This document shows, in pieces, positions 9,258-39,875 of a DNA stretch of 64,000 nucleotides. The stretch covers positions 26,350,001 through 26,414,000 of the forward strand of contig NC_135825.1 in assembly GCF_964213995.1 (NCBI RefSeq). Direction: 5' to 3'. A program made the position numbers and the translations under genes. Positions within the stretch are counted from its first letter, which is position 1, and each line of letters opens with the position of its first letter. The notes under the pieces were generated by a model. That model searched no databases. It saw nothing but the letters and a program-made list of their open reading frames with translations, and was not told the DNA's origin. The stretch comes from Mustelus asterias (lineage: Eukaryota).

Positions 9258-10095
9258 TACATTGAGGCTTGCATATTGCATAAATCTTTCATAAGTGTCA
9301 TTCTTATTTCCTTTAACATTTCCTGTCACGCTTATTAGTAAGCATCTATTATAAAATTCAATATATTGATCCACTGCAAACATTGTCATGGGAGATCTGA
9401 CAATTCAATATTAAACATTCAAACCCTGATGTTACTGACAATAAATGTATAAATAAATTAAAGAGAAGTTTTGGCAAATAAAATATGTATTAATACCAGT
9501 GATACCAGTGACTCTATTCAATAGGCTTGTTTGATGCCAGCTGAATTATTTTGTTTGAAGAATGGCACCCAAAAACCTCCTTTATGTCATTGACAGAGAA
9601 TTCCATAAAAACCATCCGGAGATGCTTTGGTGGTCTGGAATTCTGTAATAATAAGTGGATGATGATGTAAAGAGTATGATAACAGGCATGTCTCGATTCG
9701 TCAAAAATAAATGAAAATAAAAGCGTAATGTGGTTTTACTACACCAGTGATTATTTTAACATGAGACACACTGGAGACAGAACAGTGACTGTAAAAACTT
9801 TAGTATGCACACATAAAGTAGATCATCATTGTAATTGGATCCAGCACTTCATTTCCAAGTACACATCCATTACTACTTTAAAAGAATACTTTCCGTTTGT
9901 CCTGTCACTCCCTATGAAACTAAAGAGTTGTTAAACAATCTCCAAAACAATCTGGACCACCATTCAAATCAGCAGAGACAAATGAAGCACCCAGTTAAAA
10001 TCTCAGAAGTTGTGAGTAATCTTACCAGGAGGATTTCATTGCTCTATTAGTCATAACATTGAGTGCAGATGACATTGAGCAACAGTAAAACACAT

Positions 10096-10340
10096 TGTGG
10101 TGGACCTCAGTTGTGCCTTTGTCCTATATGGACCACCGTTGTGTGTGTTTGTCATACCTGGACACATCCCCTTCCAGTTTGGTTCCTCCCCTCAGCACCT
10201 AGTATAAAGGTGGCTGTCTCCTCCCCCTTGTTCAGTCCAGGTCGGTTAATTGTTGGGATCTGCTCCTGATTCTGTTGTGAATAAAAGCCTACACTTATAT
10301 TGGCATATCGGTAGTCTTTCGCCTTATTGATAGCGCATCA
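10096..10340 (+). repeat. 5' LTR
   Basis: TGTGGTGG...GCGCATCA; TATAAA 10203-10208, Inr-like TCAGT 10232-10236, AATAAA 10280-10285. Confidence 0.96.
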
Positions 10341-10341
10341 A

Positions 10342-10356
10342 TTTTATTCACAACAG
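10342..10356 (+). promoter_or_regulatory. Non-tRNA primer-binding-site position, complementary to the element's own LTR
   Basis: TTTTATTCACAACAG is the exact reverse complement of CTGTTGTGAATAAAA (10272-10286); no TGG-initiated tRNA PBS follows the LTR. Confidence 0.75.
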
Positions 10357-10364
10357 TTACTAGT

Positions 10365-10697
10365 ATGGAGCAGTTTCTAAAACCCGACAAGTTAGCATTA
10401 GACCCTCAAGAGGTTGGAGCCTCTGATAAATTTGATCATTGGTTGGACTGCTTCGAAGCATTCGTCGACACCGCTACGGCCATCGACACCGACGCTGCTA
10501 AACTCCACGTGCTCCGCGCCCGGGTAAGCGAAACTGTCTATGGAATCTTCCGGGACGCTGCTACATACGCGGACGCTATCGAACTCCTAAAAGGGCAGTT
10601 CCGAAAGAGCCCTAACGTGGTTTACGCCAGACACCTCCTAACTACCCGCAAACAGCAGCCAGGAGAATCGTGCGCCCAATTTCTGCGCGCCCTGTGA
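10365..10697 (+). CDS. gag: Gypsy Gag N-terminal part, ended by an in-frame TGA (same frame as the downstream ORF)
   Basis: Gag capsid-like sequence (ARHLLTTRKQQPGES). After TGA 10695-10697 the frame stays open (VLARACDC...LIRDAYVAGI...IQQRLLE) into the 10851 ORF; offset 486 = 162 codons. Confidence 0.85.
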   Translation: MEQFLKPDKLALDPQEVGASDKFDHWLDCFEAFVDTATAIDTDAAKLHVLRARVSETVYGIFRDAATYADAIELLKGQFRKSPNVVYARHLLTTRKQQPGESCAQFLRAL

Positions 10698-10850
10698 GTC
10701 CTCGCCCGAGCATGCGACTGTAAGGCTGTTTCAGCAGCTCAGAACACGGAGGATCTGATCCGCGACGCCTACGTTGCGGGCATTGAGTCTACATACATCC
10801 AGCAGCGTCTGCTGGAACAAGATGACCTAGACCTCCGGAAAACGGCCACG

Positions 10851-13800
10851 ATGGCTGAAACGTTAGAAGCAGCCTCCCATAATCTCAGATCTTACCTTGG
10901 ATCCCGTTCCACCGACGGCTCCACTGCGACGGCTGCTCCAGCAGGGCCCAAATGTTACTTTTGTGGCCTCCCTAAGCACCCTCGGCGTCACTGCCCGGCA
11001 AAGGACGCGATTTGCTCCGGATGCGGTAAGCTAGGCCACTTTGTTAAAGTCTGCAGAGCAAAGCCGCTTCTGAAGACTCGTGGAGCCATGTGTGCTCCGA
11101 GGGCGCGGCCATCTTTGATGCAGGCGGCGGCTGCGCGCGAATCGCCATCTTGGATGCGGTCACCGGAAGTGCGGGAATCGCCATCTTTGATGCGGTCACC
11201 GGAAGTGCGGGAGTCGCCATCTTTGAGACTGGCATCAAGGCAAGCTGAGCAGGAAGCTTCATCCGTGACGTCATCAGACGGCGACGAAGATGGATTCTTC
11301 TTTAATTCAACAGTGGCATCGATTTGCCTGGACCAGTCGCAGCCACATCAACTCTCCAAGTCCATAATGGAGATCAAGGTAAATGGTTATGCAGAAAACT
11401 GCCTGTTCGACTGTGGGAGCACGGAAAGTTTTATACACCCTCGCACAGTGCGTCAATATGCCCTTCCCGTGCGACCCTGGAGCCAGACCATCTCCATGGC
11501 CTCGAATTCTCACTCAGTGGAGGTCCTCGGGTGCTGCTTGGTGACGCTGACGGTACAGGGCACAGTCTACGAGCGTTTTCGGCTCCTCGTGCTGCCGCGA
11601 CTCTGCGCAGCTGTACTGCTGGGGTTAGATTTCCTCAGCCATCATAGAAGCGTCATCCTGCAGTACGATGGCCCTTATCCCCCGCTCTCCGTCTGCAAGG
11701 CGCCGTCACGGCAGCGCCCCTCGCGCACCACCTGCAGTCTCTCGACCCTCAAGATCACCCCCCCCCCATTATTTGATAACCTAACCCCGGATTGTAGGCC
11801 TATAGCCACCAAGAGTAGGCGCTATAGTGCGGATGACCGGGCCTTCATTCGGTCCGAGGTACAACGTTTGCTCCAGGAAGGGATTATCCAGGCCAGCACC
11901 AGCCCCTGGAGGGCGCAAGTGGTCGTAGTTAAATCGGGGGAGAAACACCGCATGGTGATTGACTACAGCCAGACCATAAACAGGTATACCCAACTAGATG
12001 CATATCCTCTTCCCCGTATCGTGGACATAGTCAACCACATCGCGCACTATAGGGTTTTTTCAACGATCGATTTGAAATCGGCTTACCACCAGCTCCCTAT
12101 CCGCTCGGAGGATCGCCCATACACTGCCTTTGAGGCGGATGGCCGCCTCTACCAGTTCCTCCGAGTCCCCTTTGGTGTCACCAATGGGGTCTCAGTCTTC
12201 CAACGGGCCATGGATCAAATGGTGGACCAGCACGGACTACGGTCCACTTTCCCGTATCTGGATAACGTCACCATCTGCGGCCATGACCTGCAGGACCATG
12301 ATGCCAACCTACAAAAATTCCTTCGTACGGCCACTCTCCTGAACCTCACATACAATGAGGCGAAGTGTGTTTTCCGGACACGCCGCCTCGCCATCCTTGG
12401 GTACGTGATAGAAAATGGTGTCCTTGGCCCCGACCCAGCCCGTATGCGTCCCCTTATGCAGCTTCCCCTCCCTACTACCCTCAAAGCACTGAGGAGATGC
12501 CTGGGCTTCTTCTCCTATTATACCCAGTGGGTTCCCCGTTACGCAGATAAAGCCCGTCCGCTCCTAAAATCGACCTCTTTTCCCCTGGCGGAGGAAGCCT
12601 GTCGGGCCTTCGATGACATCAAAGCGGACATCGCGAAGGCCGCGATGCACGCTGTGGACGAATCCATCCCATTCCAAGTGGAAAGTGATGCGTCTGACTT
12701 TGCCCTAGCTGCCACCCTTAACCAGAGGGGCCGTCCGGTGGCCTTCTTTTCCCGGACCTTACAAGGCCCTGAGATTCGACACTCCTCGGTCGAGAAGGAG
12801 GCCCAGGCCATCGTGGAAGCCGTCCGGCACTGGCGCCATTATCTTGCGGGCCAACGATTCACCTTAATTACGGACCAGCGGTCAGTTGCCTTCCTGTTTA
12901 ACACCAGGCAAAAGGGCAAGATTAAGAATGACAAGATCTTGCGGTGGAGGATTGAGCTCTCCACCTACAGATATGACATCATGTACCGGCCTGGGAAGCT
13001 CAATGAGCCCCCAGACGCCCTGTCCCGTGGATCATGTGCCAGTGCCCAACTAGACCAGCTACAGTCCCTCCATAACGACCTCTGTCACCCGGGTGTCACC
13101 AGATTTTTCCATTTTGTCAAGTCCCGTAACCTGCCCTTCTCCCTTGAGGAAGTCCGGACGATTACCAGGCAATGCAGGGTCTGCGCTGAGTGCAAACCGC
13201 AGTTCTACCGGCCAGGTAGGGCGCACCTTGTAAAGGCCACTCGCGCGTTCGAGCGCCTTAGCGTTGATTTTAAAGGCCCCCTCCCCTCCTCTAACCGCAA
13301 TGTTTATTTCCTGAATATCATTGACGAATACTCACGTTTCCCTTTTGCCTTCCCCTGCTCGGACATGACCACGGCTACAGTGATTCGGACCCTGAACAAG
13401 CTCTTCACTCTGTTCGGCTTCCCAGCCTATATTCATAGCGACCGTGGGTCCTCTTTCATGAGTGACGAGCTGAGGCAGTACCTGCTCGCCAAAGGCGTTG
13501 CCTCCAGCCGCACCACTAGCTATAACCCCAGGGGCAATGGTCAAGTAGAGCGGGAGAACGCAACCGTCTGGAAGGCCGTTCTATTAGCGTTACGGTCTAG
13601 GGGCCTTCCAGTCAGCCGTTGGCAAGACGTCCTTCCGGACGCATTACATTCCATTAGGTCACTCTTGTGCACAGCGACCAATACGACCCCTCACGAGCGG
13701 ATGTTTTCATTTCCCAGGAAGTCCTCCTCGGGTACTTCGCTCCCGGATTGGCTGATGTCCCCGGGACCCGTCCTGCTTCGGAAGCATGTCCGGACCCATA

Positions 13801-14330
13801 AGGCAGATCCCTTGGTCGAGGAGGTCCAATTGCTCCATGCTAATCCCCAATATGCTTATGTAGCGTACCCTGATGGGCGGGAGGACACGGTTTCTGTCCG
13901 TGACTTGGCACCCGCGGGTGCCCCGGAGGTCACCACGTCCTTCCGCCCCACGGTCCCTGGTGTCGTCCATTCGGAGACTGCTACGCCTCTTCCTCCCTCA
14001 GTCCCTGTCCCCAATGTAGTGTGCCCAGAGCCTGTTGCAGCCCCCCACCCCCCAGCTCCGGTTCCCACTGTTCCCCATACGCCACCAGGGCCACTGCTCA
14101 TTCCTCTCGCCCCTGTGTACAACTCGCTTGAGTCGCCGGAGCCGTCGCCACGCAGTACCCGACGACTGGACGGGACGACGGATCGGTCCGCTTCACACCA
14201 CCCAGCGCCTTCTCTCGACGCTCACTGTACGGAGCCTGGGCCGACATCGCTCCCTGCTCGGACGACTCTGCGACCTGCACTACGACGATCGCGACGACGG
14301 ATCAAGCCACCGGTTCGTCTGGACTTGTGA
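10851..14330 (+). CDS. pol: Gypsy Gag C-terminus plus Pol polyprotein (2 CCHC knuckles, protease, RT, RNase H, integrase)
   Basis: CYFCGLPKHPRRHC and CSGCGKLGHFVKVC knuckles; protease LFDCGS; RT IDLKSAYHQ, VPFG, YLDN; RNase H SDASDFALAA, EKEA; integrase HHCC and D(FKGP)-D(RG)-E(RENA). Confidence 0.95.
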   Translation: MAETLEAASHNLRSYLGSRSTDGSTATAAPAGPKCYFCGLPKHPRRHCPAKDAICSGCGKLGHFVKVCRAKPLLKTRGAMCAPRARPSLMQAAAARESPSWMRSPEVRESPSLMRSPEVRESPSLRLASRQAEQEASSVTSSDGDEDGFFFNSTVASICLDQSQPHQLSKSIMEIKVNGYAENCLFDCGSTESFIHPRTVRQYALPVRPWSQTISMASNSHSVEVLGCCLVTLTVQGTVYERFRLLVLPRLCAAVLLGLDFLSHHRSVILQYDGPYPPLSVCKAPSRQRPSRTTCSLSTLKITPPPLFDNLTPDCRPIATKSRRYSADDRAFIRSEVQRLLQEGIIQASTSPWRAQVVVVKSGEKHRMVIDYSQTINRYTQLDAYPLPRIVDIVNHIAHYRVFSTIDLKSAYHQLPIRSEDRPYTAFEADGRLYQFLRVPFGVTNGVSVFQRAMDQMVDQHGLRSTFPYLDNVTICGHDLQDHDANLQKFLRTATLLNLTYNEAKCVFRTRRLAILGYVIENGVLGPDPARMRPLMQLPLPTTLKALRRCLGFFSYYTQWVPRYADKARPLLKSTSFPLAEEACRAFDDIKADIAKAAMHAVDESIPFQVESDASDFALAATLNQRGRPVAFFSRTLQGPEIRHSSVEKEAQAIVEAVRHWRHYLAGQRFTLITDQRSVAFLFNTRQKGKIKNDKILRWRIELSTYRYDIMYRPGKLNEPPDALSRGSCASAQLDQLQSLHNDLCHPGVTRFFHFVKSRNLPFSLEEVRTITRQCRVCAECKPQFYRPGRAHLVKATRAFERLSVDFKGPLPSSNRNVYFLNIIDEYSRFPFAFPCSDMTTATVIRTLNKLFTLFGFPAYIHSDRGSSFMSDELRQYLLAKGVASSRTTSYNPRGNGQVERENATVWKAVLLALRSRGLPVSRWQDVLPDALHSIRSLLCTATNTTPHERMFSFPRKSSSGTSLPDWLMSPGPVLLRKHVRTHKADPLVEEVQLLHANPQYAYVAYPDGREDTVSVRDLAPAGAPEVTTSFRPTVPGVVHSETATPLPPSVPVPNVVCPEPVAAPHPPAPVPTVPHTPPGPLLIPLAPVYNSLESPEPSPRSTRRLDGTTDRSASHHPAPSLDAHCTEPGPTSLPARTTLRPALRRSRRRIKPPVRLDL
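11136..11226 (+). repeat. 36-bp in-frame tandem repeat (~2.5 copies) in the gag-protease linker
   Basis: Encodes RESPSWMRSPEV / RESPSLMRSPEV / RESPSL. Confidence 0.9.
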
Positions 14331-14364
14331 TATTGTTTCCGCTTCACCCCCGTGTTGTTTTTTT

Positions 14365-14380
14365 AAAAGGAAGGGGTGAA
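14365..14380 (+). promoter_or_regulatory. Polypurine tract
   Basis: AAAAGGAAGGGGTGAA immediately before the 3' LTR. Confidence 0.85.
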
Positions 14381-14625
14381 TGTGGTGGACCTCAGTTGTG
14401 CCTTTGTCCTATATGGACCACCGTTGTGTGTGTTTGTCATACCTGGACACATCCCCTTCCAGTTTGGTTCCTCCCCTCAGCACCTAGTATAAAGGTGGCT
14501 GTCTCCTCCCCCTTGTTCAGTCCAGGTCGGTTAATTGTTGGGATCTGCTCCTGATTCTGTTGTGAATAAAAGCCTACACTTATATTGGCATATCGGTAGT
14601 CTTTCGCCTTATTGATAGCGCATCA
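14381..14625 (+). repeat. 3' LTR
   Basis: Copy of 10096-10340; no differences found by eye. Confidence 0.96.
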
Positions 14626-15319
14626 CACATCTAATTGGCTGAACGGGTAATGTAGATATTCATGGAAACACTCGAAAAGAATAGACATTTCAGGACCATC
14701 TGCACTTAACATCAAACAAATAATAAATATTGATGCATCTAAACTTCTTATAGCTTTACATTATTTTTCAAAATCTCTTTGTCATCACAGGCCATGGTGT
14801 ACCAGTTTTTTCTAACGTTAAAGAGTTTGAAAAGAATCGCTACTTGTCAACAGCAACACTCAGGATGCCTCTGACATATGCCGGCAGACCAGAAGGATGT
14901 GTGAACAAAAACACTACTTCCGATCTGTCAAGGTTCCAGTGAATAATTCAGCCCATATTGGTAGATTTCAAAGCACTGTACAGCCTTTTATTAATAATTG
15001 ACAGATTAAGGCGACCAAACACTTCAGTTCATAAACCATCCTGGAGGCAAGTGGAGAGTTTACTAATCCTTTATGTTTGGATGTAACATTGCTCTTATTG
15101 ATTCGAAGATTGCATTTTTTGTTCAAAGTTATACTCTTGTCCAGCACATGTACTGCATTAAACAAAATGCAGAAATGCAGAAACAGCCCCACATTTAAAA
15201 GGAGGATGTGTGATAGACAACAGTCATACTCAAAATCAATTGATCTCCCAAGCTTTTACAAATGCAAAATCAAGACAAAGAGTTGCCTTCAGGTAAAATA
15301 GTGTTTGAGTGTATATCCT

Positions 15320-17725: not shown

Positions 17726-18416
17726 TGATGTGGAGATGCCGGCGTTGGACTGGGGTAAACACAGTAAGAAGTTTAACAACACCAGGTTAAAGGCCAACAG
17801 GTTTATTTGGTAGCAAATGCCACTAGCTTTCGGAGCACTGCCCCTTCGTTAAGTGGAGTGGAGAAATGCTCACAAACAGGGCATACAGAGACACAAACTC
17901 AATTTACAGAATAATGATTGGAATGCAGTCTTTACAGGTAATCAAGTCTTAAAGGTACAAACAATGTGAATGGAGGGAGCATTAAGCACAGGTTAAAGAG
18001 ATGTGTATTGTCTCCAGACAGGACAGCCAGTAAGATTCTGCAAGTCCAGACAAGCTGTGGGGGTTACAGATAGTGTGACATGAACCCAAGATCCCGGATG
18101 AGGCCGTCCTCATGTGTGCGGAACTTGGCTATCAGTTTCTGCTCAGCGACTCTGCGCTGTCGTGTGTTGTGAAGGCCGCCTTGGAGAACGCTTACGTGAA
18201 GATCAGAGGCCGAATGCCCGTGACCGCTGAAGTGCTCCCCAACAGGAAGAGAACAGTTTTGCCTGGTGATTGTCGAGCGGTGTTCATTCATCCGTTGTCA
18301 TAGCGTCTGCATGGTCTCCCCAATGTACCATGCCTCGGGAAAACATGCAGACGCTACGACAACGGATGAATGAACACCGCTCGACAATCACCAGGCAAGA
18401 GTGTTCTCTTCCTGTT
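17726..18416 (-). mobile_element. 5'-truncated Penelope-like retroelement with an inverted segment
   Basis: Minus-strand C-terminal GIY-YIG peptide TLRQRMNEHRS...PVGEHF...VLQGGL...AEQKLIAKF (18064-18340); inverted copy of part of it at ~18342-18416; terminal repeat with a mutated hammerhead at ~17820-17856. Confidence 0.8.
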
Positions 18417-38276: not shown

Positions 38277-39875
38277 GTGACATGGTGGCACAGTGATTAT
38301 CACTGTTGCCTCACAGCATGAAGAGCCTGGGTTCAATTTTGGCCTTGGGCCTGTGTGGAGTCTGCACATTCTCCCTGTGTCTGTGTGCGTTTCTTCTGGG
38401 TCATCCAGTTACTTCCCAGCCCAAAGATGTGCAGATTAGGTGGAGTGGCCATGCTAAATTGCCCTTTATTGTTCCATGATGTGTGGGTTAGATTGATTAG
38501 CCATGGTAAATGTATAGGATTACAGGGATAGGGTGGGGGAGAGGGCCTAGGTGAGATACTGGGCCTGATTTTAACAAAACTTCGCGCCCGTTTCTGGGCG
38601 CAAAATCGCGGTAAAGTTGAGCGTCGGGCCTATACTGCGATCTGCACCCGATTCCAAGCAGATCGCGGCTTTACCGACACCTGATTCAGGCACGGGTCCA
38701 GCGCACGCCCGATGATTTAAATGCATTTGCGCTGCGTTAAATGCGTCTGCGCTGTTACCGACCTGCAAAATAAAAGTCTGAAGTCACCGCTGCAGCCTCC
38801 GAAGAGCGGGGTCAGAGACTGCAACGACTCTCTGACCCAGGTCATCCTCTGGTTGGGGCGGGAGAGGGGTGGGAGGGGGAGAGGGGGTGTGACGTCTCAT
38901 TCCCTGGGGGGGAGGGTGGGAGGGGAGCGGGTGTGACATCTCATCTCCTGGGGGGGTGCGAGGGGTGTGAGGGGAGGGGGTATGACTGATCATCCCCTGG
39001 GGGGAGTGGAGAGGGGGTGTGATGTCTCATCCTCTGGGGGGGGTTGGGAGGGGAGGGGGTGTGACCGATCATCCCCTGGGGGGGGAGGAGAGGGGGTGTG
39101 ACCGATCATCCCCTGAGGGGGGATGGGGAGGGGGGGTAGAGACGGGGTGTGACATCTCATCCTCTGGTTGGGGGGGGTTCCACTGCGTGTCTGCGGCCGA
39201 TCCCTCCTGGCACCATCACTGGTACACTACCTGCCACAGATTGCTCTTCCCTGCAGGTGCGAGAGAGCGAGAGAGATGGCTGTGGCTGGTAGTGTCCCCA
39301 GTGATGGTGCCAGGAGGGATCGGCCACAGACAGGCAGCGGAACCCCCCCTGACCAGAGGATGATCCATCACACCCCCTCTCCTCCTCCTCCGCCCCCCCA
39401 ACCCCCCCCCTCCCCAACCAGGGGATGATCGGTCACACCCCATCTCCCGCCCCCCCCCCCCGAGTGGATGATACGTCACACTCCGTCTCCACCCACCCCC
39501 CCCAGGGGAAGATCGGTCACACCCCCTCCCCTCCCCCCCCCCCGACCAGAGGATGACCATCAGAGAGCCACTCTCTCCGCTTTCTGCTTTTTATTTCGCG
39601 CCCGGCCGCAATGTCAGATTTTTTTCGAACTGCGCATGCGCAGCTCAGAGCTCCAATTGGTTCGCCAGCGCTAAGCCCCCCCACAGCGTGGATTGGGCCA
39701 GAGCTGGCAAAACGTGTATGGGCGCGCTGGAAAGAGAATTCCAGGCGCGGATCTATTTGACGCCCAGATCCGGCACTTAGACTCAAAATGGTAAAATTCC
39801 CCCCACTGTGTCAGAGAGTTGGTGTAGACTCGATGGGCCAAATGGCCTCCCTCTGCACTATAGGGATTCTATGAT
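38277..39875 (+). mobile_element. HE1-type SINE split by the MITE at 38561-39804
   Basis: Head and body at 38277-38560; tail resumes at 39808-39875. Confidence 0.8.
38561..39804. mobile_element. Harbinger-type MITE with internal foldback
   Basis: TIRs GGGCCTGATTTTAACA / TGGTAAAATTCCCCCC; TSD ACT (38558-38560, 39805-39807); same family as 27638-29448. Confidence 0.85.

Follow-up and report, generated by a model that had tools for sequence, protein, structure and literature searches.

Probable self-priming of reverse transcription in a Ty3/gypsy clade without a chromodomain, represented by an element of Mustelus asterias

Reverse transcription of a Ty3/gypsy retrotransposon in Mustelus asterias is probably primed by a fragment of the element's own RNA, the first ~53 nt of the transcript, released by a cut in cis, with the primer binding site (PBS) pairing to an arm in the R region of the element's own long terminal repeat (LTR). 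The element lies within a 64,000-nucleotide stretch of M. asterias DNA, here called the window. A preliminary description of the window had proposed self-priming by LTR-derived RNA, and the proposal is supported, at the level of sequence, by covariation across families and by insertions that carry the predicted primer-cDNA junction. About 40 such aberrant insertions are the new evidence presented here.

Anatomy of the element and its leader

The complete insertion occupies 10096-14625, and its LTRs, polypurine tract, 5-bp target duplication, and the order protease-reverse transcriptase (RT)-RNase H-integrase are all present. The features are as follows.

10091..10095, + strand: left target-site duplication, CACAT
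10096..10340, + strand: 5' LTR, 245 bp, TG...CA, identical to the 3' LTR
10203..10210, + strand: TATA box, TATAAAGG, conserved in sister subfamilies at 67-81 nt before the arm
10232..10238, + strand: initiator, TCAGTCC; A10234 is the likely transcription start and likely primer 5' end
10272..10286, + strand: primer arm in R, pairing with 10342-10356 and holding AATAAA at 10280-10285
10283..10287, + strand: putative RNA cut, most likely at 10286/10287 (AAAA/GCC), from minus-strand ends in L287, L294, L297, L339, and L303
10287..10336, + strand: second helix, beginning at the base after the arm and stacking on the main duplex (prediction only)
10341, + strand: single spacer base, A, between the LTR CA and the primer site
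10342..10356, + strand: PBS, TTTTATTCACAACAG, complementary to the element's own arm and without TGG
10365..14330, + strand: single gag-protease-RT-RNase H-integrase frame
10953..11054, + strand: two CCHC zinc knuckles, CX2CX4HX4C
11370..11642, + strand: aspartic protease (Pfam)
11931..12410, + strand: RT core, with YLDN replacing YxDD
12591..12968, + strand: RNase H, the usual four acidic residues present as read by eye
13056..13529, + strand: integrase zinc finger and core, with neither GPY/F motif nor chromodomain downstream
14365..14380, + strand: polypurine tract, AAAAGGAAGGGG, plus TGAA, adjoining the 3' LTR
14381..14625, + strand: 3' LTR, identical to the 5' LTR
14626..14630, + strand: right target-site duplication, CACAT

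As first described, the PBS at 10342-10356 is a perfect 15-nt reverse complement of LTR positions 10272-10286 and begins a single base (A10341) past the 5' LTR, and no TGG tRNA-type site follows the LTR; the gag ATG already stands 8 nt past the duplex end. The 15-bp duplex extends on neither side. Its arm contains AATAAA, a feature absent from the preliminary description, and the AATAAA of the 3' LTR has no downstream complement. Fold prediction gave the local hairpin a probability of 0.97. Because the local fold energy alone is unremarkable (z score of −1.8) and the window contains four other perfect inverted repeats of at least 15 nt within 100 nt, the argument against chance rests on relatives.

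All same-genome subfamilies shown have TATAAAG followed 31 nt later by TCAGT, 67 to 81 nt before the arm. Most outside relatives lack a visible TATA box, and some sister subfamilies carry an initiator-like CCAGTTC just upstream of the arm. A transcription start near 10234, predicted before the insertion stops were tallied, is supported by retention of the TATA box and initiator in sister subfamilies and by four insertions whose primer copies stop there. This start-site evidence also upholds the suggestion that the primer arm would lie ~38 nt into the transcript, unlike the arrangement in Tf1.

Copies of the LTR-PBS junction numbered 578 in the genome (search allowing at most one mismatch), all 40 scored matches to the element's first 405 bases were 100% identical, and the window Gypsy family is young. 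The frame of the window copy has one stop (codon 111, 10695-10697), which is private to it (found in 0 of 30 other copies); copies appear to vary by insertions and deletions downstream of the gag start. The nearest named proteins belong to sharks and rays (76 to 82%), followed by a sea anemone and a nematode, and coral proteins are among the cluster members. At the RT active site (12255-12275) the motif reads YLDN, the second Asp being replaced by N in 93 of 120 homologs and retained as D in 26; a keyword literature search for the YLDN/YxDN motif found no paper. Three 36-bp tandem repeats lie in the 3' part of gag (11108-11226). The window also holds long inverted repeats unrelated to the element, at 18241-18416 (80-nt arms, 94% complementary, spaced by 16 nt), 526-639, and 39203-39317.

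Pairing across relatives

Relatives were collected as 140 loci (L031 to L170), some drawn from contigs of metagenomes and genomes, the others representing diverged subfamilies of the same genome. Seventy-eight were usable, with a gag match starting within 25 residues and 200 nt of upstream sequence, and several copies of some families are included. Covariation between the two 15-mers, the check named in the preliminary description, was borne out across families. Using a threshold of at least 12 pairs with one internal mismatch allowed, pairing was kept with different sequences in 71 of 78 loci (26 of 29 from outside, 45 of 49 from other subfamilies of the same genome), versus 0 of 234 shuffles. 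L077 was scored as a miss, its gag having been mislocated, though separate inspection revealed 15 pairs. The end of an LTR is set by the start point of minus-strand priming; among loci with at least 12 pairs, the duplex started at CA+1 in 22 outside loci and 42 same-genome loci.

Twenty-nine representatives chosen for having the duplex (19 outside, 10 same-genome) were compared with one another. Pairing of each arm with its own PBS spanned 12 to 18 nt, versus a cross-family mean of 4.4, and 16 of 812 cross pairs reached 11. Duplex columns 3 to 12 each contained two to four Watson-Crick pair types, and the three junction pairs were always A-T. The primer site began with TTT in every representative, the arm almost always terminated in TAAA(A) followed by GCC or ACC, and neither TGG nor space for another primer site was present ahead of gag. 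AATAAA or ATTAAA lay inside the arm in 23 of the 29, including all 10 from the same genome, and GTTAAA or TTTAAA replaced it in the other six; L031 and L039 carry a separate, unpaired poly(A) hexamer in the loop. At finer scale, L035 and L047 differ at 8 of 820 sites, two of which form a compensated arm/PBS pair, with the arm change in both L035 LTRs. Within the window family, two single-base PBS variants were found, both uncompensated in the arm; a search for compensated variation at two PBS positions found none, the second position being without variants.

The helix predicted to begin right after the arm is weak in the window family and clear in many relatives, occurring in 16 of 19 outside representatives (shuffle mean, 6.5; 0 of 2,000 shuffles). 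A contiguous second helix was found in 1 of 10 same-genome representatives, where it is not enriched. The predicted folds showed no third duplex with the leader, as would belong to the three-duplex "pretzel" around the PBS in the Tf1/sushi group. One relative, L102 (about 380-460), has a 13- to 14-pair duplex of different sequence without the CA+1/TTT start.

The element falls outside the tRNA-primed class, its primer site and those of its relatives starting with TTT in 29/29 representatives. A control Gypsy family in the same genome (L251 to L270) has a TGG primer site, which stands four T's past the LTR. The control family is abundant and young and has long, repeat-rich LTRs. With respect to half-tRNA priming, by an internal tRNA segment, the longest match of the window PBS to host tRNAs was 7 nt, in a comparison that covered 72 tRNA genes of only 7 isotypes. 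Loci L111 to L120 are animal-clade elements in contigs filed as bacterial metagenome-assembled genomes, a placement that most likely reflects host contamination. A search of viral contigs found no relatives of the element, and a protein atlas search returned generic RT clusters only.

Aberrant insertions and the route of priming

If arm RNA is the primer, later synthesis should sometimes copy past the 15 paired bases and leave a footprint. The footprint searched for ran from the LTR end through A and the PBS into sequence complementary to the bases preceding the arm. An exact search returned 18 matches, 14 of them aberrant window-family insertions, all 14 with perfect 5-bp target duplications, and 4 of them ordinary leaders of another subfamily. 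Allowing two mismatches added five further aberrant insertions; 21 matches at this setting lacked the junction, and all 12 of those examined were ordinary LTRs. By-products in the window family number 19, versus 578 normal junctions. One sister group gave 12 matches, 11 of them distinct (L301 and L302 share flanks and were counted once), and another gave 12, comprising 11 aberrant insertions and one converted leader. Many aberrant insertions are palindromes in which the LTR and A are followed by an inverted LTR reaching base 1, the product that self-folding of plus-strand strong-stop DNA should give.

Two classes of insertion are informative about the primer. Those of the first class begin at the U5 end, fold back, and run through the spacer into the PBS and mirrored LTR. 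Read in reverse, L287, L294, L297, and L339 consist of a solo LTR and the first 25 to 30 nt of minus-strand cDNA inserted at the 3' edge of the arm; in L303 the same edge is joined to an internal site, which is a misdirected first strand transfer. L287, L294, L297, L339, L284, L332, and L355 all begin at the U5 end and lack any plus-sense arm for fold-back, so a primer that had stayed joined to the cDNA would be the simplest template for the PBS copy they carry. The second class consists of primer copies that stop early. Four of them, drawn from three subfamilies (L289, L300, L307, and L338), break off no more than two bases from the initiator A and switch to the internal region; three of the four then run on in the plus sense, resembling a second transfer that went astray.

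Junctions were assigned by eye, each carries 1 to 9 nt of microhomology that blurs its position, and the tallies are small: minus-strand ends fell at LTR positions 188 to 192 (10283-10287) in 5 of 10 mappable cases (the other five near 233, 212, 203, 180, and 162), and early stops fell at the initiator A in 4 of 10 (L286, L311, L312, L317, L322, and L351 stop or skip elsewhere). Rough P values were 5e-5 for the minus-end clustering under a uniform expectation, 0.001 to 0.02 when only microhomology sites were considered, and 4e-4 to 0.002 for the initiator stops. The minus-end tally omits L299, L309, and L318, in which the LTR part begins in U3 and is joined to internal sequence, and L305, L306, L310, L313, L314, L316, and L319, in which the left side is lost. 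A jump to the 5' terminus of another RNA molecule that had not been cut could also produce a stop at the initiator A. L321 (leader) and L037 (4652-4670) are otherwise ordinary elements in which the sequence just past the PBS has become complementary to that preceding the arm, as though the upstream part of the primer had been copied there; in L321 one PBS position does not pair with the arm of the same element.

Read most economically, the primer would be a capped fragment, 10234-10286; from sequence comparisons we infer its start, its cut, and the use of the 5' over the 3' copy. Transcription would begin at ~10234, as TATA/initiator conservation and the four insertion stops suggest. The arm at 10272-10286 would fold onto 10342-10356 over a 55-nt loop, a predicted fold with observed complementarity and covariation. 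Cleavage of the RNA would follow at the 3' edge of the arm (10283-10287), as five minus-strand ends suggest; the cutter is somewhat more probably than otherwise the element's own RNase H, by analogy with Tf1. RT would extend the new 3' end across A10341 into U5 and halt at the cut after ~55 nt, and genomic insertions show the resulting arm-T-U5 junction directly. This short cDNA would transfer to the 3' R with no other homology than the stretch from the cut to the poly(A) site, ~19 nt if the site lies near 10305 as predicted. Plus-strand synthesis would copy the primer, at times to its 5' end, and the plus-strand end, complementary to its own R, could fold back to give palindromic by-products. 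Quite possibly the duplex also hides the 5' AATAAA, with less premature polyadenylation as a side benefit.

The strongest competitor to this 5' fragment, itself unlikely, is the 3' copy of R, which might anneal to the PBS from the far end of genomic RNA or from a second or short transcript, be cut or trimmed after AATAAAA, and be extended. Since the R copies are identical, covariation and the primer-cDNA junction fit such a primer equally well, and the 38 nt upstream of the arm would provide good homology for the first strand transfer. L319, which runs on via U3 and the polypurine tract into the internal region, is compatible with either transfer to the 3' R or a 3'-R primer. If the 5' arm were free, however, cDNA should reach 10234, yet half of the mappable ends lie at the arm edge; the four early stops at the initiator would not be expected from a 3'-R primer, which does not end there; and the local hairpin, given its predicted probability, would form before an RNA end could anneal. 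A Tf1-type geometry, in which transcription starts at the first base of the arm (10272) and the 15-mer is the whole primer, has been published for Tf1 and Tj1 (in the available parts of PMC7175516 and PMC4600332). The CCAGTTC right before the arm in some sister subfamilies agrees with it, and it may hold for TATA-less invertebrate families, most outside relatives being without a TATA box. For the window family it is highly improbable, given the TATAAAG and TCAGT at 31-nt spacing well upstream of the arm in all same-genome subfamilies shown and the four insertions that stop at the initiator A.

The chance is smaller still that the duplex mainly masks the 5' poly(A) signal while a tRNA half, another host RNA, or a protein serves as primer. 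The frequent AATAAA/ATTAAA in the arm, universal among the same-genome representatives, fits masking, as does a complement found solely downstream of the 5' LTR, where occlusion needs it. Masking would leave unexplained the six arms with GTTAAA or TTTAAA and the unpaired loop hexamer of L031 and L039; it does not require a fixed CA+1 start, and the U5-led insertions join arm sequence directly to the first cDNA base. Nor would any one host RNA fit a PBS that varies by family together with its own LTR. Least probable of all is that the aberrant insertions are assembly chimeras or slips of DNA replication at a quasi-palindrome. Fold-back chimeras do form at inverted repeats, and the insertions are known from the genome assembly alone. 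Against this stand their precise TG...CA ends with 5-bp duplications, in all 14 of the exact set and in L300, L307, L332, and L339, the lack of host flank in the mirrored part of the insertions examined, and their spread over many contigs and diverged subfamilies. Priming by the 5' fragment remains the preferred reading.

Clade placement and known priming systems

The protein of the window element has two CCHC knuckles and no chromodomain by Pfam, in agreement with the preliminary description. The Chromo domain had no match in this protein or in three homologs, with L277 matching as a positive control, and no chromodomain was found among the 120 homologs listed. The GP[YF] pattern occurred in 0 of 120 clade homologs, and a slightly wider pattern occurred in 87 of 120 proteins of the chromovirus set. 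In trees built from 39 and 26 of 68 extracted RT rows, the clade formed one long-branched RT-RNase H group with support of 100/100. The preliminary description had called for placement of the RT in a phylogeny; on an unrooted tree the approximately unbiased (AU) test rejected grouping with fungal and vertebrate chromoviruses (P = 0.009), and a position sister to all chromoviruses was not rejected (P = 0.16). The chromovirus references were a fungal-type chromodomain element from viral contigs and its homologs, a set without Tf1 and sushi-ichi themselves, because the search for chromoviruses in the same genome gave only weak matches of other clades. The clade would work like Tf1 yet is not a member of the Tf1/sushi group.

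Two other sets of loci were observed in passing. L277 (about 935-1180) is a chromodomain element in which a 9-nt LTR segment, identified by eye 35 nt after the TATA box, is complementary to the PBS; this complement lies near the expected start site, unlike that of the clade studied here. Loci L171 to L190 are decayed elements with integrase seemingly before RT, among which fragments L180 and L188 look retroviral. We take the label "Gmr1-like" to apply to these loci, and the label "Mag-like" is likewise presumed.

Self-priming has reportedly been proposed, in Repbase notes, for Drosophila Invader elements. Tf1 primes with an 11-nt fragment from the very start of its transcript, freed by an RNase H cut, according to the available part of PMC7175516. 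Self-priming is called a common feature of the chromodomain-bearing Tf1/sushi group in the portions available of bioRxiv 10.1101/2022.12.06.519325 and PMC4600332, and the experimental proof in this cited literature, as far as it was accessible, is for fission-yeast (Schizosaccharomyces pombe) Tf1 only. The window clade resembles Tf1 and Tf2 of S. pombe, Tj1 of S. japonicus, and Tf1/sushi elements, as those accessible texts portray them, in having no tRNA site and a PBS that pairs with an LTR-derived part of the transcript, in a primer that would be freed by a cut at the 3' end of the arm, and, by prediction, in extra helices beside the main duplex. It differs in that the arm measures 12 to 18 nt, would begin ~35 to 50 nt into the transcript, and usually contains a poly(A) hexamer, compared with the first 11 nt described for Tf1. 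Unlike Tf1/sushi elements, the clade also lacks both chromodomain and GPY/F motif, has two CCHC knuckles and mostly YxDN (93/120), and occupies a separate RT position.

Self-priming has further been predicted from PBS-LTR complementarity for the Tcn1 chromoviruses of non-seed plants and for TAR, Houba, and Osr-1 of Ty1/copia (PMC6317226, available part). Like the window clade, TAR is a self-priming candidate outside the chromoviruses; Tcn1 and TAR are plant lineages, one of them in another superfamily, and in that part of the source they are predictions without footprints. Skipper of dictyostelids and GalEa of fungi likewise have no TGG primer site, but in the available text of PMC5006619 and PMC6934838 Skipper carries a polypyrimidine stretch to which its LTR has no complementary segment and GalEa a hairpin within the internal region, both unlike the window element. 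Full-text searches of the openly available literature, with PMC3601003, PMC5443660, PMC2864245, PMC3670739, and PMC2774666 among the papers covered, found no description of self-priming in this clade.

The clade may be Cigr-1 or a MolGy clade. Cigr-1 of Ciona, which we take to be a compact, single-frame element with 245-bp LTRs, presumably resembles the window element. The Cigr-1 clade of Ty3/gypsy has been reported from Ciona and also from molluscs and annelids (PMC6238403 and PMC8556966, in the parts available). The main text of either paper, so far as available, does not mention a PBS, and a search of one supplement from this MolGy/Cigr-1 pair gave no match.

We consider the chances about even that a large animal-wide clade, spanning corals, sea anemones, a nematode, and sharks and rays, evolved self-priming independently of Tf1/sushi, with a long capped 5' fragment as primer, the poly(A) signal at the 3' end of this fragment, a single duplex that both primes and silences the 5' poly(A) signal, and failed insertions that map start, cut, and joint to within a few bases. 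If true, a separate, abundant, and recently active animal clade with a different geometry would mean more than one origin for tRNA-free priming. Host control by tRNA fragments would also fail against such elements, and annotation tools that require a tRNA site would misjudge them. Aberrant insertions would offer a purely genomic route for mapping priming intermediates in elements beyond the reach of assays.
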